Shown: positions 2,333 through 49,469, numbered from the stretch's first letter. The stretch: DNA of 51,962 nt from Bacilli bacterium (GCA_045535005.1 JAZSKU010000113.1:1-51962), one strand, 5' to 3'. A program made the numbers and translations. The notes: a model not told the origin generated them from the sequence alone.

Positions 2333-2365
2333 AAATACCCTCCTTTGTCAAATGTATTATAACAT

Positions 2366-2406
2366 ATTATAAAAGAAGAAGATTATAAATTGTATCTTCT
2401 TCTTTA
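2366..2406 (-). terminator. Intrinsic terminator after deoD
   Basis: Minus strand reads AAGAAGAAGAT-loop-ATCTTCTTCTT followed by TTTTAT. Confidence 0.6.
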
Positions 2407-2419
2407 TTATTTACAAAAA

Positions 2420-3124: not shown

Positions 3125-3133
3125 AATTCCTCC

Positions 3134-3652: not shown

Positions 3653-3654
3653 AA

Positions 3655-23581: not shown

Positions 23582-23599
23582 CTTTAGTTCACCATCCCT

Positions 23600-24604: not shown

Positions 24605-24671
24605 TTCTTTTTTCCTTTCTAGTCCTCTATTATAGAATTAGTATATCATATTTTTTTTATAAATAAAATAA

Positions 24672-24698
24672 AAAAAAGGATAGTTTTCTATCCTTTTT
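24672..24698 (-). terminator. Intrinsic terminator after the arcC-transporter ORF
   Basis: Minus strand reads AAAAAGGATAG-aaaa-CTATCCTTTTT followed by TTTATTTT. Confidence 0.65.
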
Positions 24699-24700
24699 AA

Positions 24701-32067: not shown

Positions 32068-33762
32068 TTATTTATTTAATATTTTAAATATTTCTTCCAT
32101 TAATTTAATTGTTTCTATTTCTCTTGAAGAATCATCTTTTCTTTCTTTTATTTCAACAATATTTTGTTCTATTTTTCTTCCAAGAGTTATTCTAATAGGT
32201 ACACCTATTAAATCCATATCATTGAATTTAATACCTACTGTTTCTTTTCTATCATCTAATATAGTATCTATTCCTAATTTATTTAGTTTATCATATAGTA
32301 GTTTAGCGTATTTATAAGCTTCTTTATCATTAACATTTACTACTACTATACCTACTTTATATGGAGCTACTTCTATAGGCCAAATAATTCCTTTATCATC
32401 ATGGTGTTTTTCTACTATTGATGATATACATCTATCTATACCTATTCCATATGATCCCATATGAACATAGTTAAGTTCATTTTTTTCATCTAAGTATCTT
32501 AAATTATATACTTGGCTATATGAACTACCTAATTTAAATATATGACCTACTTCTATACCTTTTAATATTTCACATTCACTCTTACATTTTGGGCAAAGTG
32601 ATGAATTATTAAATAGTTTTATATTAGCATATCTATTAACTTTAAAATCTATTCCTGGATTTATATTTTTATAATGATAATCTACTTCATTACTTCCACA
32701 TATTGCGTTATACATGCTTTTAACTTCGTTATCTGCAATTACTTCCATAGTTGTTTTAAGTGGTCCTACAAAACCTGGATGTGTACCCATTTTTTCTAGT
32801 TCTTCTACTGTTGGAAGTGATATGCATCTATTTGGATACATTTTTTCAATCTTTTTAAAGTTTACTTCTGCATCTCCTCTTAATAAAAGCATTTTATATA
32901 TTTCATCAACTTTAATAATAATTGCCTTTATTATATTTGATGCATCTACATCTAAATAATCTGTTAACTCTTTTATAGTTTTTATATTTGGTGTATATAT
33001 TTTTTGTTTCTTTTCAATTTGTATATCTTCTTTTTTATATTTATCATAAGACGTAGCATACTCAATGTTAGTAGAATAACTACATTTAGTACATTTTACT
33101 ATTTCATTATCTCCATAATCACATATTACATGGAATTCTTCTGAGTCAATTCCTTTCATTGATTCAGGATCGCTTCTTGCGATTTGAGTAGATAGTCCTA
33201 TACGATTAAATGTATGTTTAAATACTTGGAACATTTTATCGTAACTTATTTCTAAACCACCTTCATCAGCATCAAAACTATATGCATCTGCCATAAGGAA
33301 TTCTTTTTTACGATTAAGTCCATATTCACATTTTATTTCATCTCTATATTTATTAGTTATTTGATATAAACTAAAGTGTAAATCTTTATAACTTTTTATT
33401 TTAATTCTTGATAACAAAGCAAATAATTCTTCATGTGTTGGACATAAAGAATAACTTTTATTATTACGACTTAATATAGTAAATAATTCATCATCTAATA
33501 AATTATTTCTATCAGTCATTTCAAATATTTCTGTATTTATAAATGATGGCATTAATACTTCTTCTGCATTAATTTCATTCATTTCATCTCTTATTATTTT
33601 TTTAATATTATTTACTACTTTTAAACCCATTGGTAAGTATCCATATATACCATTATCGTATTTATGAATCATACCACTTTTAACAAGTAATTTTGTACTT
33701 ATGATATCTTCATCTTTTGGGTATTCTTTTCTTGTTATGAAAAAACTATTAGACAACCTCAT
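32068..33762 (-). CDS. proS: Prolyl-tRNA synthetase, bacterial type with an INS editing domain
   Basis: 564 aa with N-terminus MRLSNSFFITRKEYPKDEDIISTKLLVKSGMI, a ~180-aa insertion between motifs 2 and 3, and a C-terminal anticodon-binding domain. Confidence 0.85.
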   Translation of the reverse strand: MRLSNSFFITRKEYPKDEDIISTKLLVKSGMIHKYDNGIYGYLPMGLKVVNNIKKIIRDEMNEINAEEVLMPSFINTEIFEMTDRNNLLDDELFTILSRNNKSYSLCPTHEELFALLSRIKIKSYKDLHFSLYQITNKYRDEIKCEYGLNRKKEFLMADAYSFDADEGGLEISYDKMFQVFKHTFNRIGLSTQIARSDPESMKGIDSEEFHVICDYGDNEIVKCTKCSYSTNIEYATSYDKYKKEDIQIEKKQKIYTPNIKTIKELTDYLDVDASNIIKAIIIKVDEIYKMLLLRGDAEVNFKKIEKMYPNRCISLPTVEELEKMGTHPGFVGPLKTTMEVIADNEVKSMYNAICGSNEVDYHYKNINPGIDFKVNRYANIKLFNNSSLCPKCKSECEILKGIEVGHIFKLGSSYSQVYNLRYLDEKNELNYVHMGSYGIGIDRCISSIVEKHHDDKGIIWPIEVAPYKVGIVVVNVNDKEAYKYAKLLYDKLNKLGIDTILDDRKETVGIKFNDMDLIGVPIRITLGRKIEQNIVEIKERKDDSSREIETIKLMEEIFKILNK

Positions 33763-33767
33763 ACTTT

Positions 33768-34211
33768 CTATTCCTCTACTATATAACTTATTATTTTTCT
33801 TTTTGCAGCATCTTTTACATCATATCTAACACATACTAATAAGTTATTCATACTTTGTCCAGTTCTTGGATCTGTTAATACAGCTTTTCCTACTTCATGT
33901 CCATTATCATCTTCACTTTTATCACCTGCTACATAACCACGACTAATTAATTCAGATACTAAAATACAAGCACAGTCAGAGTTACATACTTTAACTCCTG
34001 TATAGTCAGCAGATATTGGACTAGGTATTTGAACTAAGTTATCATTAGCCCAGTCTTTAGCTCCATTATTAATAGAGTTTACTTTACTTTGATATGCGTT
34101 TTCTAATACTTCATCTCTTGTCTCTATTATTGATGGTACTACTAAAAGAGATAAAATTGCAAGTATTGCTATTACTGCTAAAAGTTCTATTAATGTAAAT
34201 CCTTTTTTCAT
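33768..34211 (-). CDS. Type IV pilin / pseudopilin (ComGC/PilA-like prepilin)
   Basis: MKKGFTLIELLAVIAILAILSLL carries the class III signal peptide (cleavage G|FTLIE). The start is placed at the ATG at 34211, 8 nt after AAGGAA. Confidence 0.8.
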   Translation of the reverse strand: MKKGFTLIELLAVIAILAILSLLVVPSIIETRDEVLENAYQSKVNSINNGAKDWANDNLVQIPSPISADYTGVKVCNSDCACILVSELISRGYVAGDKSEDDNGHEVGKAVLTDPRTGQSMNNLLVCVRYDVKDAAKRKIISYIVEE

Positions 34212-34331
34212 TTTTATCATTCCTTACTATGTTAATATGAGTATAACAAATTTTAAAAATAATAACAATATTTTATTGAAATAATATCTTTTATAAGTTA
34301 TAATAATTTATAGAATAGAAAGAGGTTTATC

Positions 34332-35759
34332 ATGAAGGAATTTGATTTTGAAAAAATCCCTATAGTAGAGATATGTAATGAAATTCTTTTAGATTCAGTT
34401 AATAGAGGTGTCAGCGATATACACTTTGATCCATCTAAAGATTCTATTAAGATTAGATGTCGTATTGATGGTGTGTTATCTGATTATGCTATTATTCCTG
34501 GAAAATATAAAAGAAATTTAATTTCACGTTTAAAAATGATAGCAAGTATGAATATCATGGAAACTCGTCTTCCACAAGATGGTGCTATCAAAACAAAAAT
34601 TGGTGAAAAGACATTAGACCTTCGTGTTTCGTCTTTACCTACTAACTGTGGTGAAAAAGTGGTTATCCGTATCCTTGATTACTCAAAGAGTTTACAAGGA
34701 CTTGAAACTTTAGGTTTTTCACAAAACAGTTTAGATAAAATTAATAAAATGATTTCAATACCTAACGGTATCATCTTAGTAACCGGAGCTACTGGGTCTG
34801 GTAAATCAACTACAGTTTACTCTATTTTACAAAAGATGAATACTGAAGATGTTAATATAATTACAGTTGAAGACCCTGTCGAAATGGATATTGGTGGTAT
34901 TAACCAAGTTCAAGCTCAACACGAAATTGGACTTGACTTCGCAACTGTACTTAGAAGTATCTTACGTCAAGACCCTGATGTAATTATGATCGGTGAAATT
35001 CGTGACGATGAAACTGCGAGAATAGCTGTTAGAGCTTCTATCACTGGACACAAAGTTTTATCTACAATCCACACCAATAACTCACTTAATACAATAGAAC
35101 GTCTTACAGATATGGATGTTGAAAGATACTTACTTGGTTCTGCTTTATCTGGAATCATTTCTCAAAAGTTAGCAAGAAAGGTATGTCCTCATTGTAAACA
35201 ATTAAGAGAAACTACTCCATATGAAAAAGATGTATTTAAAAAAGTATTAAATCAAGATGTAAGTCAAATGTTTGATGCTAACCCTGATGGATGTGAACAT
35301 TGTTTTAGAGGATATTCTGGACGTGTTGCACTTTTAGAAATACTTGTTATGAATGATAATATTCGTGATGGTATAACAAATGCCGTTCCAAAAGAAGAAT
35401 TAAGAAAAATAGTTTATAAATCAGATGTTGTTACCCTACTTCAAGATGGTCTTGAAAAAGTTGTTCAAGGAGAAACATCATTTGCTGAAATATTAAAAGT
35501 TGTAGACTTAGATAATGACTTAGGAAATTATGAAGACTCAAGTTTACAAACTAGTTTAGATGATACTGATACTACACATGCTGCTAATGAAAGTAAAACT
35601 GAAGTTAAAGAAGAAGCTAAAGAAGAAGTTAAAACTGAAACTAAAGTTGAAGATGATGTAGATTATAGTTCATTAATACCAACTGATCCAGATAATCATA
35701 ATAATGAGATACCTCATGATAATGTTAAACCTGGTGAAATTGAATACTTTAATTTCTAA
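34332..35759 (+). CDS. Type II/IV secretion ATPase (PilB/GspE/ComGA family) with a ~90-aa acidic low-complexity C-terminal tail
   Basis: Walker A GATGSGKST, Asp/His boxes, and the tetracysteine motif CPHC...CEHC. The tail is rich in KTEVKEEAKEEVKTETKVEDD. Confidence 0.85.
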   Translation: MKEFDFEKIPIVEICNEILLDSVNRGVSDIHFDPSKDSIKIRCRIDGVLSDYAIIPGKYKRNLISRLKMIASMNIMETRLPQDGAIKTKIGEKTLDLRVSSLPTNCGEKVVIRILDYSKSLQGLETLGFSQNSLDKINKMISIPNGIILVTGATGSGKSTTVYSILQKMNTEDVNIITVEDPVEMDIGGINQVQAQHEIGLDFATVLRSILRQDPDVIMIGEIRDDETARIAVRASITGHKVLSTIHTNNSLNTIERLTDMDVERYLLGSALSGIISQKLARKVCPHCKQLRETTPYEKDVFKKVLNQDVSQMFDANPDGCEHCFRGYSGRVALLEILVMNDNIRDGITNAVPKEELRKIVYKSDVVTLLQDGLEKVVQGETSFAEILKVVDLDNDLGNYEDSSLQTSLDDTDTTHAANESKTEVKEEAKEEVKTETKVEDDVDYSSLIPTDPDNHNNEIPHDNVKPGEIEYFNF

Positions 35760-35817: not shown

Positions 35818-36876
35818 ATGTTTCAAAATAAACAAAATTTTAGAATTAAATTAATATTCTTATCTTCTCTATTAGTATTTATACTTATATTAGTTAAAGT
35901 GTTTTATATACAAGTTATTGAATATAAGAAACTTAATACTTTAGCTAATGAATTATGGAGTCGTAATTTAACTATAGGTTCTGATAGAGGTAAAATATTA
36001 GATAGAAATGGTAAAACTATAGTAGATAATATTACTACTGTTAGTTTATATATAGTACCTAATCAAGTTATTGATAAAAAAGATGCTGCAGCTAAAATAA
36101 GTAAAATACTTAATATTAGTTATGATAAGATGTATAGTTATTTAACAAAGAAATCTTCTTTAGTTAAAGTTCATCCTGAAGGAAGAAACTTAAGTTTTGA
36201 TGTTGCTGATAAAATTAATGAACTTGAACTTGATGGTATATATTTACTTAAAGAAAGTAAGAGAAACTATATATATAAAAATACTTTATCTCATGTACTA
36301 GGATATACTGGTATAGATAATCAAGGGTTAAGTGGTATAGAACTTAAATATGATAAAATTCTTACTGGTAAAAATGGTAGTATTAAATATTATTCAGATG
36401 GTCATGGTAAAAAATTAGAACTTAGTGAACTTTATATAGAACCAGTAAATGGTAAAGATGTTAAATTAACAATTGATTTAGATGTTCAACTATCACTTAG
36501 TAATGAACTTAATAAAGCATTTTTAAAATATAATGCTGATAAAGCTATAGGAATAGTACAAAGTGTTAAAACTGGTGAAATTATTGCTATGGAGAGTTTA
36601 CCTTCTTTTGATCCAAATAATTATAAAAATTATGATACTGAAACATTAAATCGTAATTTAGCTATATGGAATAGTTTTGAACCTGGTAGTACTTTTAAAA
36701 TAATTACACTTGCTTCTGCGATTAATGAAGGTATAGTTAATATATTTAGTGATACTTATAATGATACTGGTGGTATTAAAGTTGAAGGTAGTACTCTACA
36801 CTGTTGGAAAAGAAAAGGACATGGATATCAATCGTTTATACAAGTAGTTGAAAACTCATGTAAAGAGTATATTTAA
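35818..36876 (+). CDS. Class B penicillin-binding protein (SpoVD/PBP2B-like), N-terminal fragment truncated by the inserted element
   Basis: A GGTGA RBS precedes MFQNKQNFRIKLIFLSSLLVFILILV (TM anchor). Next come the dimerisation domain (WSRNL...DRGKILDRNG) and the active-site STFK motif (EPGSTFKIITLA). Host sequence ends at ...CWKRKGHGYQSFIQVVENSC. After 36863 the codons KEYI* are read from element DNA. Confidence 0.85.
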   Translation: MFQNKQNFRIKLIFLSSLLVFILILVKVFYIQVIEYKKLNTLANELWSRNLTIGSDRGKILDRNGKTIVDNITTVSLYIVPNQVIDKKDAAAKISKILNISYDKMYSYLTKKSSLVKVHPEGRNLSFDVADKINELELDGIYLLKESKRNYIYKNTLSHVLGYTGIDNQGLSGIELKYDKILTGKNGSIKYYSDGHGKKLELSELYIEPVNGKDVKLTIDLDVQLSLSNELNKAFLKYNADKAIGIVQSVKTGEIIAMESLPSFDPNNYKNYDTETLNRNLAIWNSFEPGSTFKIITLASAINEGIVNIFSDTYNDTGGIKVEGSTLHCWKRKGHGYQSFIQVVENSCKEYI

Positions 36877-36880
36877 ACAA
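36845..36880. other. attL junction (host PBP | element), core TAA at 36861..36863
   Basis: GTTGAAAACTCATG-TAA-AGAGTATATTTAAAC. Homology to PBP sequence stops after TGT AA. Confidence 0.6.
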
Positions 36881-38417
36881 GGACAATTAACTCATTTTTT
36901 CTATTATTAAATTTTATTTCTTTAATAATATATTTGTCATAATTAAAGTATATTTTAAGACGTATATGACTTCTATTAGTTAAAGGAAATATTTCTATTC
37001 TCTTAATAAATATCTTTATTAAATTAGGTAATTCATCCTCTAAATTAAGTATATTTTTTATATTATTTAGATTATCAATATTTATATAACTTTTATTATT
37101 TAATTTAGAATCTAATTTATTCTTTTTATTTAAATATTCTTCTTTACTAATAATATTATTAATTAATAAATCTAATAGTTTATCTTTTTCAGAATCAATA
37201 GATTTAATTTCGTTACTTTTATTATAATTATTAATAATATTAGTATATTCATTTATTAAAGAAGAAGTTATTAAATTAATATCTATTATTTCATTAAATA
37301 TATCAATAAATATTTTATCTAGATATTCTTCTTTTATAATTGGACTATTACATATATTTTTTCCGTTTGACTTATAATTCTTACATGAATATGTTGGGCT
37401 ATTCTTTCTAGTGCTTCCACTACTTCTTATATATATTTGATTACATTTACTACAATAAATTAAACATGAGTATTTAGAATATTTATTAGAATTTAATATA
37501 TGTTTGTGTATAGACTTCTTTCTTTTATTATATAAGTTATTTACCCTATTCCATAACTTTTCATCTATTATAGCTGGTATATTATTATCTTTTTCTATTA
37601 TTTGATTTTCTTTTGGTACTTTTACTTTCTTATGAGTTTTATAATCTATTACTTCAGTTAATCTTGCTGTGTAATATCCTTTATATCTAGGATTAGTTAT
37701 AAACTTAGATATTGTTGTTTGTGAATATGGTTTACCTTTTTTATTTAAGTATCCCATTTTAGATAAATTATTACTTATTTCTTTTAAACTTGTACATCCT
37801 GAAATATATGTATTAAATATATGTCTTATAATAAAAGCTTCTTTTTCATTTATTACATATTTACCATTCTTTTTATAATAACCTGTTAAATTACTTCCGA
37901 TTAGTTTTCTATCTTTTATCATTCTATTAATACCAAATTTAATTCTACTTGATAATTTTCTTACTTCATCTTGAGCTAAACTAGACATAATAGTTAATCT
38001 AAATTCAGAGTCTTCATTTATAGTATTAATATTATCTGTTAAGAAATACACTATTGTGCCGTGTCTTAAAAGATACTCTGTATATTTAATACTATCTAAT
38101 GTATTTCTTGAGAACCTTGATATCTCTTTAGTAAGTATTAAATCTATGTTGCCAAGTGAAGCGTCCTCTATCATACGAAGAAACTCTTTTCTATTTTTAA
38201 CAGATGTACCTGTTATACCTTCATCTATATAACTACCTTTAAATATCCAATTTTTATTTTCTTTAATCATTTCATTAAAATAATTAGTTTGATTTTCTAA
38301 ACTATTTAATTGATCTTTTGAATCAGTAGATACTCTAGCATAATAAGCTACTTTTAAGGGCATATCATATATCGTAATACCTTTTCTTAGTAATTCTCTT
38401 CCTTTTATTATATCCAA
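36873..38417 (-). CDS. Large serine recombinase (SpoIVCA/CisA-like)
   Basis: 514 aa. Resolvase catalytic domain with MPLKVAYYARVSTDSKDQ (nucleophilic Ser) and SRFSRN, a recombinase domain, a Cys-rich zinc ribbon (CSKCNQ...CKNY...CNS) and a C-terminal coiled coil. TTG start 6 nt after AAGGGTGA. Confidence 0.9.
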   Translation of the reverse strand: MDIIKGRELLRKGITIYDMPLKVAYYARVSTDSKDQLNSLENQTNYFNEMIKENKNWIFKGSYIDEGITGTSVKNRKEFLRMIEDASLGNIDLILTKEISRFSRNTLDSIKYTEYLLRHGTIVYFLTDNINTINEDSEFRLTIMSSLAQDEVRKLSSRIKFGINRMIKDRKLIGSNLTGYYKKNGKYVINEKEAFIIRHIFNTYISGCTSLKEISNNLSKMGYLNKKGKPYSQTTISKFITNPRYKGYYTARLTEVIDYKTHKKVKVPKENQIIEKDNNIPAIIDEKLWNRVNNLYNKRKKSIHKHILNSNKYSKYSCLIYCSKCNQIYIRSSGSTRKNSPTYSCKNYKSNGKNICNSPIIKEEYLDKIFIDIFNEIIDINLITSSLINEYTNIINNYNKSNEIKSIDSEKDKLLDLLINNIISKEEYLNKKNKLDSKLNNKSYINIDNLNNIKNILNLEDELPNLIKIFIKRIEIFPLTNRSHIRLKIYFNYDKYIIKEIKFNNRKNELIVLV

Positions 38418-38575
38418 GTTATTTCACCCTTTTAATGTATTCATAGTATATATAATTATCTATAATATTATTTTCATATAATTTTCTATTAATATTTAGT
38501 TTCCATTCTTTTATTAAATTATTCATATTTAACTATATGAACATTAATAAAAAAAATACATAAAAAAAGAGCTAT

Positions 38576-38971
38576 TTAAGCTCTTGCATTATTTCTTATA
38601 AGTGCTTGATATATTACTTTAAGATTTTCTTTTTTATCATGATTCATATTAACAAATACTATTCTCATTTGATATCCACTTTCAAGTGCTAAGAATAATT
38701 CTGCTCTTCCTGGTTTAAATGTAATAGCACTAGTATTAATTGATTTATATGGAATTACATGTATCTTTTTATATGATTTTATAATATCTCTATCAAATAA
38801 TACCATTGTTTTATCAGTAAATACTGCATAATCTCTAGCAGTTTTATATCCACCTAATATTCTTTCACCAGGATTTACATATTCTTTAGTATAATCTGGT
38901 AAATCATCAATTTCTATTTGTTCTTTAAAATCAAAATATTTTGTTAATTCTTTATATTTTATATATGCCAT
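38576..38971 (-). CDS. Bacterial PH-domain protein (YokE-like)
   Basis: 131 aa. ...ERILGGYKTARDYAVFTDKTMVLFDRD...IPYKSINTSAITF...ELFLALESGYQMRIVF matches the bPH/YokE pattern of beta strands followed by a C-terminal helix. It has its own terminator at 38562..38585. Confidence 0.55.
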   Translation of the reverse strand: MAYIKYKELTKYFDFKEQIEIDDLPDYTKEYVNPGERILGGYKTARDYAVFTDKTMVLFDRDIIKSYKKIHVIPYKSINTSAITFKPGRAELFLALESGYQMRIVFVNMNHDKKENLKVIYQALIRNNARA

Positions 38972-39025
38972 TTTAACTACTCCCTATCTAAGAACATTTT
39001 AACATATAAAAAATCAAAAGAAAAG

Positions 39026-39046
39026 AAGAGATTTCTCTCTTCTTAT
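39026..39046 (-). terminator. Intrinsic terminator after the 2007-aa gene
   Basis: Minus strand reads AAGAAGAGA-gaaa-TCTCTTCTT followed by TTCTTTTGATTTTTT. Confidence 0.6.
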
Positions 39047-39059
39047 TTTATTCAGTAAT

Positions 39060-42000
39060 CTATTCTACTACTGGAACTATAACTTTTTCTACTACTTCGC
39101 CTTGAGCATTTTGTTCATAACCATCAGCTAAGTATGCAGTTACATCATTTAATGTACCAGTGAATTTTCCACCTTTGATAATTACATCAAATGTTTGGTC
39201 TGCTTGAGCAGAATCAGTATGAATTACTTCATAACTAGCGCTCTTAGAAATAAATGTTCCGCCTTTTACTAGTACAGTAACATCTTTTGCAGCAGATGCG
39301 TTTAATAAATAAATTGCAGCTCTTGCTGAATTATATTTACCACCATCAACTGTTACACTAACATTATTTGAACTTTCTGCATAAATTGTGTAATATTTAT
39401 GAGTTTCAAAGTTAGAATTCTTAATGTTTGCAGTACCACCAGTAATTCCGAATGCTCCTTTAGTATTTGTAATATTTACATTATCAAGAGAAGCATTTCC
39501 TGCAGTTACTCTAATAGCATAACTTGATTGAGAATCAGCTGTAATAGTTGTATTTTTAATTTCTAAAGTTCCAGTACTACTTACTGCTGCATCTCCCCAT
39601 TTTTGTGTTTTACCATTAATAGTTGATGATATAGAAGTAACTTTAATTGTTGAATCTTTAATTATTAATGTTCCATTATTATCAAATGTAGAACCATCTT
39701 TAGATCCATTATCTTTAACATCAACATTATCAATTGTTAAAGTTCCTTCGTTAGATACAATTCCATAAGAATGAGTATCTTGGTTAACTAAGTCACCATC
39801 TTTGATAGTTAAGTTACCTTTATTTTTGATTAATCTTGATGAATCATCATCTGGATTATCAATAACTAATTCTTTACCATCTAAATCAATTACTAATGTT
39901 TTATTTGAAGCTAATTCAATTTCTTCTGTTAAAGTTGTATCTTCAGTTAATTTATAAGTTCCACCTTGTAGGAAAGCTAGTTTTAACTTTCCTTCAGGTG
40001 TATTTAATAAATTATCAAATTCTTCTTGAGTTAATTCTCCAAATTTAGTAATAATTTTTTCAACGATTGCACCATCTTCAATTACTACTTCATTAATTAA
40101 ATCAACTTCTGATAAATCTAGTACTTTAACTTTAGCACCAGATTTAATATTAATTGCATTATAACGTTTTGTTAAATCAGTTCCATCTACTAAAATAGCT
40201 TTAGCAACAATTTTATTAACTGTTGTACCATCACCAATTGTTAGATGACCATTAACGTTAGTTCTTGTAGCAGTTTCAATAGTATCTACTTTTACATTAT
40301 TAAATGTAGCTTTAGTTTTATTCCATACATATACAGTTCCTACTTCTCCACCATTCATTTCAAGTATTGAACTTTGAGTAAGAACTAAATCATATAATGG
40401 GAATCCAGCTTCATCCATACTAGACATTTTTGTTCCAGTGATGATTGAATTATTGATTTCACCTTCGCCCCATAGAATTAATCCACCAGCTAATTGTGAG
40501 AATGAAACAACTTCTAAATTTTTCATTGTTACATTATTTAAGACATTTTTCTTAGTTGGATGTTCATAGAATCCTAAATTATTTGCAGTTATTTGTCCTT
40601 TTAATGTTAAGTTATTAACTGTAACACTTCCATTTTTAGATGCGAATATATTTGACATAGCAGGTGCTTTATAACCAGTTGGCCATTCCATATAAGCATC
40701 TTTTGTAGAAGCAATTTGTGTAACTGTATATCCGTTACCATTAATTACAATATCACCAGATGCATTTATAATATCACCTTTTGTACCGTTTCCAGTTTCA
40801 TCATAATATAAACTGTCATTCCATAATGTCATATCTCCAGTTAAATCCATAACTCCATTAGTTGGTTTTAAAGTATTTTTACCAAGTGTATAAGTGATTT
40901 CACTTTCGTTTCCAGATAAGTCTCTTGCAACTACTCTGTATTCACCATTTCCAAACCAATCAAAGTTTGTTCTAAAACTCTTTCCACCTGGATAAGTTTT
41001 AACTAGTTTTCCATCTCTATATGCATATAATGTTACATCTTGTAAATCTGATGTAATAACATCTGTTTTCTTTTCTAGAGTATCTTCTCTAAAATCTAAA
41101 GATAATTTTGGAGCAGTTGTATCACTAACAATTACCCAAATCTTAGATTGTTGTAATTGATTATTAGATACATTTCCTTCAGCATCTTCAGCCATGTATA
41201 CTAGTAAGTATTTACCAATAACATTTGGATCAACAGTTTCACCTTCTGCAAGTCTTCTTACAAATGGTCCTGTTGCATTATTTTCACCTAATTCATATAA
41301 GTTAATATATGATGGTGCGCTCTTTTCATAATCAGCATCGATATTATCAGTAACTGTTGCACCTAATTCTGTATAAGTACCTGTTCCGTATTCAACATGT
41401 ACATTATTTTTTGCCTTAGCTGTAACAACTGGACTAGTTGTATCAACAACATTAACTATAATATCTTTTGTAGTTACATTATTAAATTTATCTGTGAAGC
41501 TATAACTTAAAGTATAAGTTCCTACTTTACTCATGTCTACACTACCAGATTCTAATTTAGTTGTAACTTCTGTTAAATCAGTAATTTCAAATGTTGGGAA
41601 GTCTGTAAATTCTTTTGTTTTGTCTCCCTCAACAGTTTTTTCTGTATAGCTTGGTGTTACTACTGGAGCTGTATGATCGATTGTAGCCATTGTCTCTGTA
41701 CTGTTACCAGCTTGATCTGTAACAACTACTTTATATTCTCCATCTCCTAACCAGTCTATTGAGAATCTCTTATAATTAGATTTTTCATCTACTGTTTTAA
41801 CTACTTCAGTTCCTTTATAAACTTTAAATACAATTTTATTAGTATCACTACCTACAACATCAGTTCTCTTATCAGCAAGTTCTGGTCTATAATCAATTTC
41901 TAATTCTGGAGCTGTTTTATCAATAACAATGTATTTTTGAGAACCTAATTCGATATCATCGTTTGTAAGTTTTACTCCTACATTTCCAACTTTATCAGCA

Positions 42001-45000
42001 TATCCTACTACTTTAACAGAAAGATCACCATCTTTTAATCCATCATCTTCAGTTAATTTGAATTCAGCTGCATAAATGTAACTATCATCAGATATTTTAG
42101 CTAAATATGCAAGTTTACTAACTTTTCCATTTAATGTTACTGTTGGGTTTGTAGCTAATCTTTCAGTAAATGTTGTGTATACATAAATAGTTGTTCCATT
42201 TGTTGCATACATTGTATATTTACCATTTTCCCAGTATCCTTTTCCTCCAAGCATTCTTATACTTGAGTGAACTGGTGCGATTGTATCGATTGATACATTC
42301 TTTTGTCCTGGTGTAGTTATATCATCATTTGTTAATGTAACTCCAACATTTCCTACTTTGTCAGCATATCCGTAAACTTCAATGCTTACTGCACCTTGTT
42401 TAGAGTTTTCTGTGACTTTGTATGTAGCTCCGTACATATAAGTTCCATCAACTTCTTTAATATATGATGTAGATAATTCTTCACCATTTAATTTTACTTT
42501 TGCATTTGTAGCTAGTTTTTCTTTAAATGTCATATATACATTTATTGTTTCTCCAGCTTTTACATACCATGTTTGAACACCATTTTCTTTAAGTGCTCTT
42601 CCACCTAACATTCTTAATGTTGCATATTCTGGTGCAGTCTTATCAATAACAAATGTTACTGTTGATTCATTTCCTGCTTTATCATAAGCAACAACTGTAT
42701 GTGTTCCTTCATGAGTAATTTTCTTTTGGAATTTAATTAATCCATCTACTGTTGTGAAATCAGATGCAGTATATTCTGTTCCATCGATAACTACTTTATC
42801 TAAATTCTTATCGCTTACATAAACGATTTCATTTTTATTTGTAGCTTTTGTTTCATCAACACCTGTAATTGCTGGTGCTGTGTAATCAATTGTGAATGTA
42901 ACTCTTACTCTGTTGCCTGCTCTATCATAAGCAACAAATTCATGAGTTCCTTCTACATCGTATTTTGTTCCTAATTCATATTTTTCTCCATCTATAGTAG
43001 CAGATGCGATTGGAGATACATTATGAACAGCATATTTTACTTCATTAATAGTAACTGGAGTATTGTAATGATAATTATTATTAATTCCTTCGATTACAGG
43101 ATTTCTGTTATCGTATACAACGCTTCTTCCGTTACTTGTAATAGTTTGATCTTCTAATACTGTTTCATTTAATGCTATGTCTTTAATATTTGAAACTTTA
43201 ATTTCTAATGTTCCTTGTTTTAAATCTTTTTCATTAGCATCAATTGTGAATGTACCTTCGTATAAGAATTTGTTTTCGTTATTCTTAACTTTTTCATTTA
43301 AAACCATTTCAACTTCTCTACCAGCAATTGTTACTGTTGGAGCTGTTGTTAATTCTTCTGTAAATGAAATAGCAAATTCAAAGCTATCACCATTCTTAAC
43401 ATAGTAATATTTAACACCATTTTCAATATATTCTGTTTTATTTACACGTAATGTTGAATATACTCTTGCTGCTGGTGTTCTGTCATAAATTACAGTTTTA
43501 CCATTAGTTGTAACATTTGTAGTGAATGTTTCATATACTTTTTTACCATTTGTTTGATAATAGAATCCAGTATTACCAGCTTTATCTGTTACATTAGAAA
43601 TAACGATTTCTAATTGTCCTTCAGTTAATTCTGTTTCATTTTCTGGGATTTCTAAGTATCCATAATACATATAACTATTAGTAGCTGCGAAGTAATTTTC
43701 GAATGTTAATTTAACTTCTTTTCCACCAATTGTAACTACAGCGTCTTCACCTAATTCTTCTCTAAATCCGATATTGAATTGTACTTTTCCACCGTTTTTA
43801 ATGTAATATGTTTTTCCAACTTCTACACTGTTTCCTTTTCTGAAGAATGTTTGAGTTACTCTATTTTCTGTTCTATCTAATATAATAACTTTTTCTCCTA
43901 CAGACATTTTAGTGATATCATCAGTTTTATTTCCTGCTTTATCTAAGATATCTACTACATGGAATGTTATATTTCCATCTTCAGCAACTAAGTTTTCATT
44001 AATTTCTAAAACTGCTGTGTAAACATATGGATAGTCATTGTTTTGAGATGTGCTTGCTACTACGTTTTCATTAGCAACTCTTGCAATTTCTTTTCCATTT
44101 GCAAAGAATATGAATGTTGGATTATTTTTTAATTCTTCGTTAATTGAAATGTATGCAGTTATTGTTTTTCCATTAATCGCATATTGTGTCTTAACTTCAT
44201 TCTTGTATCCATTAACATTTGCATTTACTGCGTTTTTCTTAGCAGCAGTCTTATCAATTGTAAATGTTACACTTGATTCATTGAATGCTTGATCAAGTAC
44301 AGTATAAACATATTCTCCTTCCTCTGTAAATGTAGCTAGAGGATCTATTTCTTGTCCATTTAATGTTACTTTTATTGTTACATTTTCTTCATTAACAGTA
44401 AGTGTAACATCTTCGTTTGTTATTTGTCCGTCTTCTATTCCCATAATTAATGCAGGAGTAGTATCATTTAAAATTATATTTACATCATCTAAACGACCTT
44501 GTAAGTTTTGTTTAACGTCTTCAGTAGTTAATGCACTAATTACATCTTGGATACTATTTGTGTCTCTAAAGTTTCTTGCTGAATCCATATCATCTTTATT
44601 AGTAGCATTTTTTACCATTTCTTCTAATGCAGCAATTAGTTCAGTTGCATTAATTGCAGCATCTACTGCATCTAATCTTGAAGCTAATTCTTGCTTTTTA
44701 GTTTCATCAGTTACTCTATCAACTAATGTACGAGCTTTTGATGAATCTTCTTTGTTTAAACTATTTTCAGCTATTTCTACTGCTCTTAGAGCATCTTGGT
44801 AAGTATTATCTTGTTTTTTATCTGTTTGGTTACCTTTGTTGTTATTACTATTACCAACTGTAGAATTTCTATTAGATTTACTATTTTCTTCATCGTTTTC
44901 TGTTTCATCAACTACGATAGTGTTATCAGTTTTATCTGATTCATTATCTTTCTTTACTTCTTTTGAACCATTTTCAGATCCATTTAATTCTTCCTCGTTT

Positions 45001-45083
45001 TCACCAGGATTTGCGAAAGTAAATACAGAAAGTCCGATAAGTAAGAATATAAGTAAAACTATATATTTTTTCTTTCCTTCCAT
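39060..45083 (-). CDS. Giant secreted/surface protein (2007 aa): signal/anchor, helical repeats, multiple Ig-like domains, C-terminal right-handed beta-helix region
   Basis: N-terminus MEGKKKYIVLLIFLLIGLSVFTFA|NPG. Helical modules read (A..RLD.V..AI). Ig-like repeats recur, each ending D.AGN....TF.ID.TAP. DUF5011-like modules are present (VGTYTLSYSFTDKFNN, IGKYLLVYMAEDAEGN). The last ~700 aa carry repetitive G(T/N)LTI.N..V coils. No LPXTG, SLH or choline-binding anchor was seen. Confidence 0.85.
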   Translation of the reverse strand: MEGKKKYIVLLIFLLIGLSVFTFANPGENEEELNGSENGSKEVKKDNESDKTDNTIVVDETENDEENSKSNRNSTVGNSNNNKGNQTDKKQDNTYQDALRAVEIAENSLNKEDSSKARTLVDRVTDETKKQELASRLDAVDAAINATELIAALEEMVKNATNKDDMDSARNFRDTNSIQDVISALTTEDVKQNLQGRLDDVNIILNDTTPALIMGIEDGQITNEDVTLTVNEENVTIKVTLNGQEIDPLATFTEEGEYVYTVLDQAFNESSVTFTIDKTAAKKNAVNANVNGYKNEVKTQYAINGKTITAYISINEELKNNPTFIFFANGKEIARVANENVVASTSQNNDYPYVYTAVLEINENLVAEDGNITFHVVDILDKAGNKTDDITKMSVGEKVIILDRTENRVTQTFFRKGNSVEVGKTYYIKNGGKVQFNIGFREELGEDAVVTIGGKEVKLTFENYFAATNSYMYYGYLEIPENETELTEGQLEIVISNVTDKAGNTGFYYQTNGKKVYETFTTNVTTNGKTVIYDRTPAARVYSTLRVNKTEYIENGVKYYYVKNGDSFEFAISFTEELTTAPTVTIAGREVEMVLNEKVKNNENKFLYEGTFTIDANEKDLKQGTLEIKVSNIKDIALNETVLEDQTITSNGRSVVYDNRNPVIEGINNNYHYNTPVTINEVKYAVHNVSPIASATIDGEKYELGTKYDVEGTHEFVAYDRAGNRVRVTFTIDYTAPAITGVDETKATNKNEIVYVSDKNLDKVVIDGTEYTASDFTTVDGLIKFQKKITHEGTHTVVAYDKAGNESTVTFVIDKTAPEYATLRMLGGRALKENGVQTWYVKAGETINVYMTFKEKLATNAKVKLNGEELSTSYIKEVDGTYMYGATYKVTENSKQGAVSIEVYGYADKVGNVGVTLTNDDITTPGQKNVSIDTIAPVHSSIRMLGGKGYWENGKYTMYATNGTTIYVYTTFTERLATNPTVTLNGKVSKLAYLAKISDDSYIYAAEFKLTEDDGLKDGDLSVKVVGYADKVGNVGVKLTNDDIELGSQKYIVIDKTAPELEIDYRPELADKRTDVVGSDTNKIVFKVYKGTEVVKTVDEKSNYKRFSIDWLGDGEYKVVVTDQAGNSTETMATIDHTAPVVTPSYTEKTVEGDKTKEFTDFPTFEITDLTEVTTKLESGSVDMSKVGTYTLSYSFTDKFNNVTTKDIIVNVVDTTSPVVTAKAKNNVHVEYGTGTYTELGATVTDNIDADYEKSAPSYINLYELGENNATGPFVRRLAEGETVDPNVIGKYLLVYMAEDAEGNVSNNQLQQSKIWVIVSDTTAPKLSLDFREDTLEKKTDVITSDLQDVTLYAYRDGKLVKTYPGGKSFRTNFDWFGNGEYRVVARDLSGNESEITYTLGKNTLKPTNGVMDLTGDMTLWNDSLYYDETGNGTKGDIINASGDIVINGNGYTVTQIASTKDAYMEWPTGYKAPAMSNIFASKNGSVTVNNLTLKGQITANNLGFYEHPTKKNVLNNVTMKNLEVVSFSQLAGGLILWGEGEINNSIITGTKMSSMDEAGFPLYDLVLTQSSILEMNGGEVGTVYVWNKTKATFNNVKVDTIETATRTNVNGHLTIGDGTTVNKIVAKAILVDGTDLTKRYNAINIKSGAKVKVLDLSEVDLINEVVIEDGAIVEKIITKFGELTQEEFDNLLNTPEGKLKLAFLQGGTYKLTEDTTLTEEIELASNKTLVIDLDGKELVIDNPDDDSSRLIKNKGNLTIKDGDLVNQDTHSYGIVSNEGTLTIDNVDVKDNGSKDGSTFDNNGTLIIKDSTIKVTSISSTINGKTQKWGDAAVSSTGTLEIKNTTITADSQSSYAIRVTAGNASLDNVNITNTKGAFGITGGTANIKNSNFETHKYYTIYAESSNNVSVTVDGGKYNSARAAIYLLNASAAKDVTVLVKGGTFISKSASYEVIHTDSAQADQTFDVIIKGGKFTGTLNDVTAYLADGYEQNAQGEVVEKVIVPVVE
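41905..42635 (-). repeat. Tandem duplication of a ~122-aa (~366-bp) module inside the giant gene
   Basis: The two units begin ...RMLGGRALKENGVQTWYVKAGETINVYMTFKEKLATNAKVKLNGEE...GYADKVGNVGVTLTNDDI and ...RMLGGKGYWENGKYTMYATNGTTIYVYTTFTERLATNPTVTLNGKV...GYADKVGNVGVKLTNDDI. They have diverged at the DNA level. Confidence 0.7.
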
Positions 45084-45162
45084 TTAAAAACCTCCTATTT
45101 TTTCTTTTCAAATAACAAAAATTTGCAGACTCCCCCCAAGGCCACATTCTTGGAGTACTTAT

Positions 45163-45191
45163 ATTATATTCGCAACAAGTAAAAAAGTAAA
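45163..45191 (-). promoter_or_regulatory. Promoter of the giant surface protein gene
   Basis: Minus strand reads TTTACT, 17 nt spacer, TATAAT, about 75 nt upstream of the ATG. Confidence 0.5.
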
Positions 45192-45231
45192 CAAAAAATT
45201 CACTTTTTCAAGCGAATTTTACATGATTTTT

Positions 45232-45747
45232 TTATTTTACATATTTAATTCTTGTGATAGGCCAAATTCTTATATTAACTTTACCTAAAATATCATTTTT
45301 ATCTATAAAGCCAAACTCTCTACTATCAAGTGAATTATTTCTATTATCTCCAAGTACTAAGTATTTATCTTCTGGTATTTCATCGAATATAATGTCTTCT
45401 GTTATTTGTTCTTTTGTTAAGAATGTTTCTTCTATATATTCTCCATTTATATATAATTTATTATCTTTATACTCTACTTTTTCTCCTGGTAAACCAATAA
45501 CTCTTTTGATTAAATATTTAGTATCTTCATATTCAAATGATATTATATCGAATCTCTTAACATCAAATAATCTATAATGAAATTTATTTAATAATAATAT
45601 ATCTTGATTTTCTAATGTTGGACTCATAGATGGACCAACTACTTGTTCTAATGTTACAACATATACTATTATGAATAACATTACTACTATAGTAAGTATA
45701 TATTTAAATGAATCTATACAAAATTCTTTTACATCTCTTAAATCCAT
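45232..45747 (-). CDS. Type I signal peptidase (S26 family), element-encoded
   Basis: 171 aa. TM anchor, catalytic Ser box GPSMSPTL, Lys box KRVIGLPGE, and GDNRNNSLDSR. Confidence 0.85.
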   Translation of the reverse strand: MDLRDVKEFCIDSFKYILTIVVMLFIIVYVVTLEQVVGPSMSPTLENQDILLLNKFHYRLFDVKRFDIISFEYEDTKYLIKRVIGLPGEKVEYKDNKLYINGEYIEETFLTKEQITEDIIFDEIPEDKYLVLGDNRNNSLDSREFGFIDKNDILGKVNIRIWPITRIKYVK

Positions 45748-45839
45748 ATGTATTCTCCTATTAACAATACAATATTAACATAAGTAAATTAAATTTTAAA
45801 GTTATTTTACGTTTTAAATTAGAATTTTACTTATGTTCT

Positions 45840-45875
45840 TATTTATATGTAAATTAATCCTGGGTTTGTGACACT
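45840..45875. other. attR junction (element | host PBP), core TAA at 45855..45857
   Basis: TTATATGTAAAT-TAA-TCCTGGGTTTGTGACAC. The PBP frame resumes as (AA)T CCT GGG TTT GTG = N P G F V. Confidence 0.6.
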
Positions 45876-46701
45876 TGGTCTTAAACTGGGTAAAGAAAGA
45901 TTATTTGAGTATATTAAAAAGTTTGGTTTTGGAAGTAAAACTAATATTGATTTAAATGGTGAAAGTAAAGGTATTTTATTCAATATTAATAATATTGGTT
46001 TACTTGAACTTGCCACTACTGCTTTTGGTCAGGGGGTTAGTGTTACACCTATTCAACAAGTTAATGCTGTTAGTGCAATTATTAATAATGGGAATCTTTA
46101 TAAACCATATGTTGTATCTAGTACTTCTGATAAAATATTTAGTCCTACTTTAATTAATTCAAATATAATTTCATCTGAAACTAGTTCTTTAGTTAGATAT
46201 GCACTTGAAAGTGTTGTTGCTAATGGAAGTGGTCGTAATGCTTATATTGAAAACTATAGAGTTGGTGGTAAAACTGGTACTGCTCAAAAAGTTGGTAGTG
46301 ATGGAAGATATATGGAAAATAATTATATTCTTTCTTTTATTGGGTTTTTACCTGCTGATGATCCTTTATACACTGTTTATATTGCTATTGATAATGCTAA
46401 AGGAGTTACTCAATATGGTGGTGTTGTAAGTGCTCCTATTGCTAAAAATGTTATGGAAGATATTATATCTATTTATGATATTAAAAGTGATAGTGATGGA
46501 ATACCAAAATCTTATAAATGGGATGATATTAAATATATAACTATTCCTAATTTAATTGGTATGACTAAAAAGGAAGTAAGACGTGCTTTAAATGGTTTTG
46601 AAATAATATTTATAGGTTCTGGTGACAAAGTAATTGATAGTCAACCAAGTTCATTATCTCGTGTTAAGGAAGGTAGCACTATTAGAATTATGTTAAATTG
46701 A
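45856..46701 (+). CDS. Class B penicillin-binding protein (SpoVD/PBP2B-like), C-terminal fragment with no start of its own
   Basis: NPGFVTLGLKLGKERLFEYIKKFGFGSKTNIDLNGE..., TTAFGQGVSVTPIQQ, the KTG motif (VGGKTGTAQK), and a single C-terminal PASTA domain (IPNLIGMTKKEVRRALNG...GSTIRIML). The GTG at 45868 used by the track is internal. Confidence 0.85.
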   Translation, partial: NPGFVTLGLKLGKERLFEYIKKFGFGSKTNIDLNGESKGILFNINNIGLLELATTAFGQGVSVTPIQQVNAVSAIINNGNLYKPYVVSSTSDKIFSPTLINSNIISSETSSLVRYALESVVANGSGRNAYIENYRVGGKTGTAQKVGSDGRYMENNYILSFIGFLPADDPLYTVYIAIDNAKGVTQYGGVVSAPIAKNVMEDIISIYDIKSDSDGIPKSYKWDDIKYITIPNLIGMTKKEVRRALNGFEIIFIGSGDKVIDSQPSSLSRVKEGSTIRIMLN

Positions 46702-46752: not shown

Positions 46753-47586
46753 ATGAAAAAGATATATTTATCAGAAAGTGAAATTAGTTCGTTAGAATTC
46801 TTAAAATTAGATAATGGTATTATGTCTACTGAAGAAGATTTATATTTTTTTAAAGACAGTGTATTTAAAACATTGTTTCCTCTTGATACTGAAAAAGTTA
46901 ATCATAAGTTATATATATTAAGAAGTTTAGATGAAGTAAGAGATGTTTTTCCAAGTGAACTATGTATTCCCCACTCTTTAGTTTATTCAGGTGATGAAAT
47001 TAAAGGTTTTGCAATGGATAAAATAAGAGGTAAAAACTTAGAAACTATTTTAAGAGATGATAGTTTTCCTATTAAAGATAAAATAACTATTTTAAGAAAT
47101 ATTGGTATATTATTAAGTCGATTAGATAAAAGATTTTTTATAAATGACTTACATGCCTCTAATATATTAGTTACTCCTGATAATGGAATTAAAGTTATTG
47201 ATTTAGATAGTTCTAAAATTAATGATAGTGTATCTTTTCCATCTAGATATTTAACTCCATTTTCTTTAGTAAAAGATGTTGATAAATATAAAAAGAGTTC
47301 TAACAGATTTGGATATATTGAAGCTGATAGAAATTCTGATTATTATTGCTTTGCTATAATTATTCTTAATTTTATATTTGGTAAGAATATTAGTGGTATT
47401 AAAAGAAATGATTTTTATGAGATACTTAACTTTTTAGAAAGTTGTGGTATTCATAGAGATTTAATTTATTCATTTGATTTATTAATTAGTGAAAATGATA
47501 ATATTAATCCATATGAGTTATTATCATCTATTGATAGTAATATGATTAGTAAAGCAAGAACTTTAGAAATTAAGAGAAGTTACTAA
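46753..47586 (+). CDS. Protein-kinase-like fold protein (Kdo/RIO/Bud32-like mini-kinase), paralog 1
   Basis: 277 aa. The catalytic-loop-like segment is FFINDLHASNILVTPDNGIKVIDLDSS (D-x4-N, then a DLD metal-binding motif). A candidate ATP-binding Lys sits in SVFKTL. An AAAGGGG RBS and a TGCTATAAT promoter lie upstream. Confidence 0.55.
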   Translation: MKKIYLSESEISSLEFLKLDNGIMSTEEDLYFFKDSVFKTLFPLDTEKVNHKLYILRSLDEVRDVFPSELCIPHSLVYSGDEIKGFAMDKIRGKNLETILRDDSFPIKDKITILRNIGILLSRLDKRFFINDLHASNILVTPDNGIKVIDLDSSKINDSVSFPSRYLTPFSLVKDVDKYKKSSNRFGYIEADRNSDYYCFAIIILNFIFGKNISGIKRNDFYEILNFLESCGIHRDLIYSFDLLISENDNINPYELLSSIDSNMISKARTLEIKRSY

Positions 47587-48599: not shown

Positions 48600-48722
48600 A
48601 ATATTTCACTTCCCTCTTCATGTATTATACTATAATAAATAAATTTTTTCATTATTTTTTATATTTTATTTGCATACTCAATTTAATTATTGTATTATAA
48701 AGATATTTTGTAGGTGGATAAT

Positions 48723-49469
48723 ATGAAACAACTTGTAATTGATGAATCTAAATTATATAAAAAACCTTTACTTATTGATACTGAACATCATGAGAGTGAT
48801 ATTTATATACATGATCAAAATACATTATATAAAGTATTACTTTCTAGTAGTAGAGTTTTAAGAGAACAATCTATTTATAGACTTAGTGAATACTCTAATC
48901 CTGATACTGTACTTCCAAGGGATTTACTATATAATGAAAACTATTGTTTTATTGGATACTCTATGGATTATTTAAGTGATTATAGTGTAAGTAAAGATGT
49001 TATATTTGGAGATATGTCTTTTGAAGATAGACAAAAGTTTGCATTTAAAGTAGCTAGTATAATCGAAGGATTTATGAATGATGGATTTATATATTGGGAT
49101 ATTCATTCAGAAAACATTATGTATAAAGGAAATGATATTAAGATTATAGATATGGATTCTATTAAATTTAGAGATGATTATTCTACTGAAGGATATAAAT
49201 ATGAACAAATGCGTGCTCATCAAAGTTTAACTCTTTTATGTTTATCATATATGGCTGGATTTGAATTTTTAGAGTTTCCTAAAGTACTTAATTATGAAGA
49301 ATTACAAAGATTATTTGGTCCTATGTTTGAAAATACTTATTTAGAAGATATGTTTGAAGATATATTTGATTATCCTGATAAGTTACTTAGACCTACTACA
49401 TTTATTATGGATTTAACTGAAGATGATTTAAGTCATTTCAAAAAGAATTTAATTAGAATACTTAAATAA
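48723..49469 (+). CDS. Protein-kinase-like fold protein, paralog 2
   Basis: An AGGTGG RBS lies 5 nt before the ATG at 48723. The sequence GFIYWDIHSENIMYKGNDIKIIDMDS has the same D-x4-N / (I)DxD layout as paralog 1. Confidence 0.5.
   Translation: MKQLVIDESKLYKKPLLIDTEHHESDIYIHDQNTLYKVLLSSSRVLREQSIYRLSEYSNPDTVLPRDLLYNENYCFIGYSMDYLSDYSVSKDVIFGDMSFEDRQKFAFKVASIIEGFMNDGFIYWDIHSENIMYKGNDIKIIDMDSIKFRDDYSTEGYKYEQMRAHQSLTLLCLSYMAGFEFLEFPKVLNYEELQRLFGPMFENTYLEDMFEDIFDYPDKLLRPTTFIMDLTEDDLSHFKKNLIRILK

Follow-up and report, generated by a model that had tools for sequence, protein, structure and literature searches.

In the present study we have analysed a 51,962-nucleotide stretch of DNA from a Bacilli bacterium (GCA_045535005.1 JAZSKU010000113.1:1-51962), hereafter the window, in which the gene of a class B penicillin-binding protein (PBP) is split within its catalytic SxN motif by an element encoding a large serine recombinase (LSR). 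From sequence comparison we propose, with a probability of roughly 0.55, that this is a skin-like split gene which depends on excision of the element, and that the element comes from a family of integrative and conjugative or integrative and mobilisable elements (ICE/IME) of the order RF39 whose chromosomal attachment site (attB) lies between the Cys348 and Asn349 codons of the PBP. An earlier note on this DNA had described a skin-like intervening element. The LSR element, its precise removal in silico and the maintenance of the split gene uphold that description; it is not, however, an isolated remnant, but a member of a mostly mobile ICE/IME family with three insertion sites.

The split gene and its junctions

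The N-terminal half of the gene (35818..36861, plus strand; residues 1-348) encodes the membrane anchor, the PBP dimer domain and the STFK motif and continues up to the Ser-Cys of SxN. Homology places its start at MFQNKQ, at 35818, within an open reading frame (ORF) that mechanically begins at 35704; it terminates with ...QVVENSC, after which four codons provided by the element (KEYI) lead to a stop at 36874..36876. The C-terminal half (45856..46698 on the same strand, with the stop codon reaching 46701; residues 349-629) starts with the Asn of SxN and comprises TPIQQ, KTG and one PASTA domain. Its frame opens two codons before Asn349, after a TAA at 45850..45852, and reads I-NPGFVTLG... from 45853, with the Asn349 codon from 45856. 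The first start-like codon is a GTG at 45868, four codons in, and the C-half has neither a signal peptide nor an anchor of its own.

Joining 35818..36861 to 45856..46701 in silico removes 8,994 bp (36862..45855) and yields a protein of 629 aa with STFK, SCN, KTG and one PASTA domain, whose domains (PBP_dimer, Transpeptidase and a single PASTA) are those of the class B architecture. Thus, the two half-genes form one collinear PBP of the predicted length of about 629 aa, and the cut of SxN by exactly 8,994 bp claimed in the earlier note is correct to the base. Among the best 120 intact homologs, which share 69-76% identity with the joined protein at 100% query coverage, all but three (638, 633 and 633 aa) are likewise 629 aa long. 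A ten-sequence alignment of the joined PBP with intact homologs contains no gaps, and Q342-V353 (QVVENSCNPGFV) is invariant across the junction. Both this alignment and a search for the uninterrupted allele had been suggested in the earlier note, and the second was equally successful: four loci (L001-L004) contain an intact PBP in the gene order of the window (prolyl-tRNA synthetase, pilin, ATPase of the type II secretion system (T2SS) type, PBP, kinase-like gene, tryptophanyl-tRNA synthetase, kinase-like gene, LexA, DUF7666, rhomboid) and represent a syntenic empty site.

The LSR gene (36873..38417, minus strand; 514 aa, TTG start) lies at the left junction, its end being 11 nt from the crossover, and every gene of the element is on the minus strand, antiparallel to the PBP gene; the ORF map agrees in these respects with what had been noted before. 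The protein contains Resolvase, Recombinase and zinc-ribbon domains (PF00239, 95 bits; PF07508, 71 bits; PF13408, 35 bits). In an alignment of 18 sequences R28-V-S30-T-D32 and other residues of the catalytic region are invariant, and the coiled-coil region of the window LSR is about 25 aa shorter than in its relatives. Among proteins of solved structure the LSR is closest to a 'putative conjugative transposon recombinase' (3G13), and in NCBIfam the CcrB/CcrC models match it best.

The trinucleotide TAA is common to both junctions (36861..36863 and 45855..45857), leaving the cut position ambiguous by 3 bp, and no target duplication is found beyond it. Within this TAA the crossover dinucleotide AA corresponds to 36862..36863 in the left attachment site (attL), where the best dyad centre falls and which is the position used in 76 loci of the family, and to 45856..45857, the first two bases of the Asn349 codon, in the right one (attR). 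The reconstructed attB of the PBP (...GAAAACTCATGT-AA-TCCTGGGTTT...) and the reconstructed site of the element, attP (...TATATGTAAATT-AA-AGAGTATATTT...), both have their best dyad centre on AA, individually non-significant but coincident. One half of attP is the element-side arm of attL (36864..36890), which presents the family outer motif TGTCCTTGT when read inward; the other is the element-side arm of attR (45829..45855), which contains TGTTCTTAT and has a homologous arm in a second sample of the same species (L301) and in a related species (L302). These data show that integration is conservative and takes place at an AA dinucleotide flanked by imperfect inverted repeats.

A family of elements directed at one gene

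In a scan of one genome per species with an LSR alignment, 185 genomes contained a relative, and the best 80 of these 185 were examined. In 76 of the 80 loci the LSR adjoins part of the same PBP, with the break exactly at the boundary of the Cys348 and Asn349 codons, and the contigs of the remaining four end too early for the break point to be judged. The coincidence of the break codon in 76 of 80 independent loci is far beyond chance. The named hosts, Candidatus Coprovivens, Faecimonas and Faecisoma, represent three families of the order RF39; from synteny, a G+C content of 26% and the common element family we infer that the host of the window belongs to RF39 as well.

In the arrangement of most loci, the LSR is placed at the attR end and points in the same direction as the PBP; the arms of attP form a clear inverted repeat (TGTTCGTGTATTGACACAAAGC-AA-TCTTGGTGTTACTACAAGAACA), with the AA of the Asn codon at both junctions. 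The opposite polarity is found in the window, in L009, L014 and L027 and in the closest relatives, L297 and L298, whose core in the sense of the LSR is TT. The central dinucleotide of LSR sites governs the orientation of integration, and the TT core of the flipped elements matches what this rule predicts for reversed integration. In a further group, 'type b' (L072, L076, L079, L083, L075-L077, L080, L081, L084), the attR-side arm (e.g. TTTTTTTAGCCAGAAATCCCGCCCCCGAG) is unlike the inverted attL arm, in contrast to the main subtype.

The recombinase ORF of the main subtype reads through attP and is fused in frame with a DUF5655-containing ORF of 260-300 aa located just inside attL. Fusion products of 857 and 871 aa are observed (L203, reverse complement, 1233-3806; L296, 10001-12616), and the in silico circle of L043 gives one of 874 aa. 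Thus, integration of the main subtype splits the element's own gene besides the host PBP. The 'type b' LSRs (527 aa) and that of the window end short of the crossover. After integration many LSR ORFs extend beyond attR (or attL) and enter the PBP in antisense or in another frame (P0132 ends with RVFNYL, the antisense of QVVEN), so that near-identical recombinases differ in length by host (545-608 aa; P0139 cluster, 1,869 members). Some LSR copies are fragmentary or frameshifted, and elements also occur in tandem or nested arrays at the same site (L019 9886-10323; L034 19749-21072; L059 10001-10201; L064 10001-17700; L025), which implies that some arrays need a recombinase in trans or are decaying. 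L034 comes from a closed RF39 genome with a split PBP, OZ006981.1. Several RF39-type contigs with PBP and LSR (L011, L016, L019, L026, L053, L058, L081) are filed under metagenome-assembled genomes (MAGs) of Paludibacteraceae, Oribacterium, Bacteroidaceae, Phocaeicola, Vescimonas and Muribaculaceae, odd labels that are probably due to mis-binning of a widely spread mobile element together with its flanks.

Two further LSR lineages, 39-52% identical, occupy other sites of the same PBP. The crossover of one is at the AA of the Lys codon in S-T-F|K (site 1) and that of the other at CA in TPI|QQ (site 3), and a separate palindromic attP belongs to each lineage. Of the 80 loci, 6 carry an element at site 1 and 21 have that site empty; for site 3 the corresponding numbers are 13 and 54. 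One locus (L047) shows breaks at all three sites of a single PBP gene, and in multi-element genomes the PBP is cut through its catalytic motifs into 3-4 pieces of 55-66 residues. All three insertion sites are the most conserved motifs of the gene.

Across 49 loci the identity of the LSR and that of the PBP are uncorrelated (Mantel r = -0.009), and LSRs of 97-100% identity are shared by hosts with 49-57% identity in the PBP C-half, which together indicate recent horizontal transfer of most family members. A 33.8-kb contig (L296) with a family LSR and attP and without PBP carries a VirB4-like ATPase, an M23 peptidase, a MobL/relaxase and a VirD4-type coupling protein, and its element is an ICE. 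A second contig (L203) likewise has LSR and attP, no PBP, and type I restriction genes. The unintegrated attP form was therefore found for relatives, not for the window's own element. In a scan with short attP patterns more than 120 metagenome and 11 viral matches were dismissed as chance, and L203 alone passed a filter for arm sequence and LSR adjacency; the ends of this contig have no terminal overlap. A prophage origin was also considered and rejected, since the element has no phage genes and the nearest LSRs in IMG/VR are only 37-40% identical.

The cargo of the window's element, all on the minus strand, consists of a bacterial PH-domain protein (38576..38971, 131 aa; Pfam-type match to bPH_1), of which a homolog is found in host DNA of L074, a secreted or surface protein with Ig-like repeats (39060..45083, 2007 aa), encoded by the same element in L301 and L302-L305, and a signal peptidase I (45232..45747, 171 aa; TIGR02227, 169 bits), kept in L301-L305. 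Domain and model annotation revealed no phage structural, packaging, lysis, replication or transfer genes among its proteins. Relaxase, coupling protein and type IV secretion genes are absent from the window's element and present in its relative L296, and the element is at most a mobilisable or decayed derivative of the ICE family. Its G+C content is 0.269, and that of the flanks 0.270. In relatives the cargo is highly variable, including RelB/ParE-type pairs, secreted proteins, enzymes and a response regulator, and some elements contain little beyond the recombinase, the minimal ones being of 2.5-3 kb. Pairs judged by eye to resemble RelB/DinJ-type antitoxins and ParE/RelE/YafQ-type toxins are present in minimal or small elements (L063 8934-9537; L067 8793-9395; L065 6638-7226) and would stabilise the element against loss. 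The non-phage cargo had been called unusual in the earlier note; variable cargo of this kind is instead normal for an ICE/IME family.

Maintenance and proposed restoration of the gene

All 12 reconstructable split genes from different species, namely those of 11 relatives (including L053, in three pieces) and of L297, rejoin to 634-636 aa with no internal stop and with STFK, SxN and KTG present. Similarly, the C-half of L069, split at sites 2 and 3, rejoins intact (286 aa). Element lengths range from 2,480 to 10,548 bp and fall in all three mod-3 classes; intein and read-through models were rejected because of these lengths and because the elements carry stops. The roughly 70 PBP pieces of the 80 loci are all free of frameshifts and stops, while several LSR copies are fragments. 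The ratio of nonsynonymous to synonymous divergence (dN/dS) is 0.02-0.15 among split alleles, a comparison in which selection before and after insertion is inseparable for arbitrary pairs; the pair formed by the window and L302 separates them.

The related species L302 (PBP C-half 80% identical) has the same element type at the same site, with the giant protein, the signal peptidase and the homologous attR arm, and the element of this lineage is present in at least nine contigs (L302-L305) from several samples; L306 (P0236) is too short to reach its recombinase end. L301, an independent sample of the window's species, carries the same integrated element with a junction that is the same to the base, and the samples with the window's element include SRR24653818, ERZ28654015, ERZ28653841, ERZ28653904 and ERZ28018789. 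Between the window and L302, dS is 0.77 and 1.07 for element genes and 0.63-1.0 for flanking host genes, values so similar that the insertion is most simply older than the species split and vertically inherited. The detached PBP C-half shows a dN/dS of 0.19 between the same two species. In a neutral simulation at half that divergence about 13 in-frame stops arose per copy, and 0 of 2,000 copies stayed open. As the element co-diverged with its host while the C-half stayed open, a dead insertion within a pseudogene, the outcome against which the earlier note had set its reading, is excluded for the lineage of the window. Thus, the detached PBP pieces are shown to be under purifying selection, and the window copy is a non-conjugative, vertically inherited member of a large, mostly mobile ICE/IME family dedicated to this PBP. 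The dominant genotype of the assembled population nevertheless has a broken gene, as do at least 76 species representatives, and the gene is therefore not needed for bulk growth; since its pieces are selected, it must be rebuilt in cells that matter for fitness.

We propose that LSR-catalysed recombination between attL and attR, the sole mechanism encoded on site, would remove the element as a circle and restore ...VENSC-NPGF.... Excision would probably need, as directionality factor, the small protein encoded just upstream of the LSR. The most likely setting would be a terminally differentiating cell, that is, a sporulating mother cell making cortex. In that case the germ line would keep the element, as with skin/sigK and SPbeta/spsM, and the excising cell type would add to fitness without passing on its chromosome, following the logic of skin, SPbeta and the heterocyst elements.

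In at least 63 of 74 elements the LSR gene is directly preceded by a small ORF, whose length is 70-86 aa in the main subtype and 35-45 aa in 'type b' and in the window. It has the core L..N..LY....I and zero Pfam matches, and we consider it a candidate recombination directionality factor (RDF). The window copy (38419..38526, minus strand; 35 aa) adjoins the LSR start. Upstream of the small ORF the motif TCATA(t/a/c)A.TT, with a conserved G 21 nt further upstream, is found in 33 of 41 non-redundant elements and in the window (CATATAGTT; 38531..38539, minus strand). CATA is found 20-36 nt upstream of the start codon in 68% of the LSR operons and in about 55% of the orthologous PBP genes, compared with 8% of 644 other genes of the same loci taken as controls. 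The motif resembles what we take to be the -10 element of sigma-E/sigma-K promoters of B. subtilis, where spoVD depends on sigma-E; it overlaps, in A/T-rich DNA, with hexamers of the sigma-A type as well. CATA-bearing genes include those for SEDS, Dac-type carboxypeptidase, MurE, MraY and a weak YlxY-type deacetylase. Sporulation-specific models all remain below cutoff and the gene sample is biased to PBP neighbourhoods, so that these genes lead to no conclusion on a regulon.

The PBP resembles SpoVD. The protein matches the SpoVD equivalog model TIGR02214 at positions 4-633 of 636 and its closest solved relative is SpoVD of C. difficile (389 bits; best FtsI, 227 bits), which, with the single PASTA domain, agrees with the SpoVD type given in the earlier note; the match stays, on the other hand, below the equivalog cutoff. 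Two free-standing C-halves have been named 'stage V sporulation protein D' by JGI; the protein search with the C-half gave short proteins only, from which no split-to-intact ratio is derivable. Field et al. predicted that RF39 have a wall and can form spores, having lost most PBPs, described spoVD as 'reduced or absent' in them, and placed the order among lineages that lost peptidoglycan. Split alleles, we infer, could contribute both to the reported absence of spoVD and to the statements that RF39 do not sporulate.

Several observations weigh against excision in a sporulating cell. The window's own PBP promoter lacks the CATA motif. The small ORF of the window is the short form, has no evident ribosome-binding site and starts 5 nt from the motif, which makes its expression uncertain. 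The PBP itself scores 662 bits against a curated SpoVD cutoff of 688. In the relatives L297 and L299, though not in the window, mraY and a SEDS gene stand beside the PBP; the SEDS protein is best on SpoVE and also passes the FtsW cutoff, so that this may be the host's only class B PBP. No sporulation gene was found among the approximately 40 annotated ORFs of the window, and a 2025 classifier, in which spoVD is treated as universal in spore-formers, gives RF39 MAGs a sporulation probability of 0%. No excision product of the window's own element was seen, and L203 and L296 could be tandem junctions instead of free circles. Finally, the horizontal mobility of most family members, together with the toxin-antitoxin pairs, is selfish behaviour.

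The main rival to mother-cell excision is a reversible ON/OFF switch in growing cells, unrelated to sporulation, in which excision and re-integration would give subpopulations with or without the transpeptidase, the LSR alone integrating and the LSR with the RDF excising. Such a switch could serve, for example, beta-lactam tolerance or, in a lineage that is close to the Mollicutes, which lack walls, a state with a thin wall or none. It would accommodate a gene that is broken in the dominant genotype yet selected, the loss of most PBPs by RF39 among peptidoglycan-losing lineages, the dispute in the literature over their sporulation, the presence of attP-form DNA in metagenomes and a PBP that stands in relatives beside mraY and an FtsW-passing SEDS gene, like a general division enzyme. 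However, an excised non-replicating circle would be lost on division, and the window's element has been inherited vertically over a dS of about 0.9 without replication or transfer genes. Known LSR systems are strongly directional and not freely reversible, a background with which free reversal fits poorly, and two or three elements per gene would have to flip together. We thus regard the switch as unlikely, and it fits less well than excision in a mother cell. Less probable again is a purely selfish insertion without restoration, using conserved DNA as a landing pad in a dispensable PBP and leaving a young pseudogene. The uncorrelated divergence of LSR and host, the near-identical LSRs in diverged hosts, the toxin-antitoxin cargo, the ICE relative with relaxase, type IV coupling protein and VirB4-like ATPase, and the choice of the gene's most conserved motifs at all three sites are what such behaviour would produce. 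Against it, host and element of the window diverged together, and the PBP half remained open at a dN/dS of 0.19, where about 13 stops are expected under neutrality; none of the PBP pieces is damaged, while several LSR copies are fragmentary; and three independent LSR lineages chose the same gene, though many genes have equally conserved motifs.

That the halves act as separate polypeptides which assemble into an active enzyme, with no DNA rearrangement, seems to us very improbable. Both halves are open, and gene callers predict free-standing C-halves in many assemblies, but the C-half, lacking signal peptide and anchor, would have no way of reaching the cell wall, is without a conserved start codon or ribosome-binding site, and in other genomes belongs to a gene cut into still smaller pieces through the catalytic motifs. 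An assembly artefact or chimeric contig is hardly credible: although the assembly is of metagenome type and several related contigs are obviously mis-binned, the same junction is found to the base in L301, in at least nine contigs of a related species (L302-L305) and in 76 other loci, and the junctions have the structure of a recombinase site. Excision of the element in a mother cell, with restoration of the PBP, therefore remains the explanation that we favour. It is possible, if doubtful, that RF39 go further and run programmed rearrangements on what is perhaps their only class B transpeptidase, with up to three elements keeping the gene off in growth and all excising to rebuild it, either in the mother cell or as a switch between walled and weakly walled states, the recombinase gene of the main subtype being reciprocally split.

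Neighbouring genes, related systems and significance

Other genes of the window deserve mention. Downstream of the PBP, paralogous kinase-like proteins (46753..47586 and 48714..49469; weak Pkinase match, 17.9 bits) surround the tryptophanyl-tRNA synthetase gene, in a synteny kept in relatives. Directly upstream, at 33768..35759, lie a type IV pilin-like gene and a T2SS/type IV pilus ATPase gene, also in conserved synteny; if they form a true competence pilus, they would offer an uptake route for non-conjugative elements. Two prolyl-tRNA synthetase genes of different types are present within 52 kb (16519..17940 and 32068..33762), one matching proS_fam_I at 573 bits and the other being the 564-aa bacterial type with an editing domain. 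An arginine deiminase cluster (22325..28326), with two arcA paralogs, ornithine carbamoyltransferase and a 797-aa fusion of carbamate kinase with a YfcC-type antiporter, is a Mollicutes-like energy metabolism. Ribosomal protein L20 (14871..15398, 175 aa) has a C-terminal extension, and models for an 'L20/unknown domain fusion' and a 'sunset domain variant' matched below their cutoffs.

Among known systems, several independent heterocyst elements of cyanobacteria (nifD/XisA, fdxN/XisF, hupL/XisC) lie within genes that only a terminal cell type requires, and one of their recombinases, XisF, is of the serine type. They resemble the present case in the multiple elements per gene, and the window LSR weakly matches the XisF model (92 bits; cutoff 375); phylum, target and recombinase lineages are different, and a terminal cell type in RF39 is hypothetical. 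The prophage in Listeria comK ('active lysogeny') is a functional prophage that excises during intracellular growth and switches its host gene; it is alike as a mobile element within a gene with a proposed excision switch, whereas the RF39 element is not a phage. The conjugative and mobilisable transposons Tn5397/TndX and Tn4451/TnpX, the conjugative transposons of C. difficile and SCCmec (CcrAB) have the same recombinase type (3G13; CcrB/CcrC models), and L296 carries transfer genes; the window's element has none, and neither targeting of PBP motifs nor long upkeep of a split gene has been described for them.

Close parallels are the gene-intervening elements of spore-formers. Described targets are sigK (skin), gerE (gin), spoVFB (vfbin), spoVR (vrin) and yabG (yin) (PMC4191935, PMC5595907, PMC5025042, PMC10747680), while SPbeta (SprA/SprB, spsM), in which the LSR and a small RDF set the direction, is both an active mobile and a gene-intervening element (PMC4191935, PMC5499854). 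A literature search of incomplete coverage gave sigK, spoVFB, spoVR, gerE, spsM and yabG and no spoVD or PBP, in agreement with the earlier note, whose author did not recognise a spoVD-type PBP as a described target. With skin (SpoIVCA, sigK; B. subtilis and C. difficile) and the gin, vfbin, vrin and yin elements the window's element shares an LSR-bearing, non-infective element within a coding sequence and its precise in-frame removability; like skin, it is vertically inherited, and relatives include minimal elements of 2.5-3 kb with the recombinase only. Here, in contrast, a class B PBP is the target and the cuts fall in its catalytic motifs, three LSR lineages use three sites of one gene, the family consists mostly of horizontally mobile ICE/IMEs, sporulation of the uncultured RF39 hosts is disputed, and excision is proposed from sequence. 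SPbeta resembles it as a mobile element that doubles as a gene-intervening one, with an LSR and a small, here putative, RDF; unlike SPbeta, the RF39 element has no phage genes, and its putative RDF is unrelated to any Pfam family.

With this gene, a cell-wall synthase cut in its catalytic motifs would join, as a new target class, the short list of genes controlled by excision, and several independent recombinase lineages converge on it. As a resource, the family supplies natural sets of LSR, attP and attB by the dozen, in either polarity and of three specificities, together with a candidate for a new directionality factor. Scoring of spoVD presence or absence as a marker of sporulation in MAGs misses split alleles, possibly the reason why spoVD has been reported to be lacking in RF39. 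This order is uncultured and very common in the gut, and a gene that is broken and yet selected implies a hidden cell state, be it sporulation or a wall switch; if true in its mother-cell form, the split PBP would be hard evidence of a cryptic developmental programme in this order.

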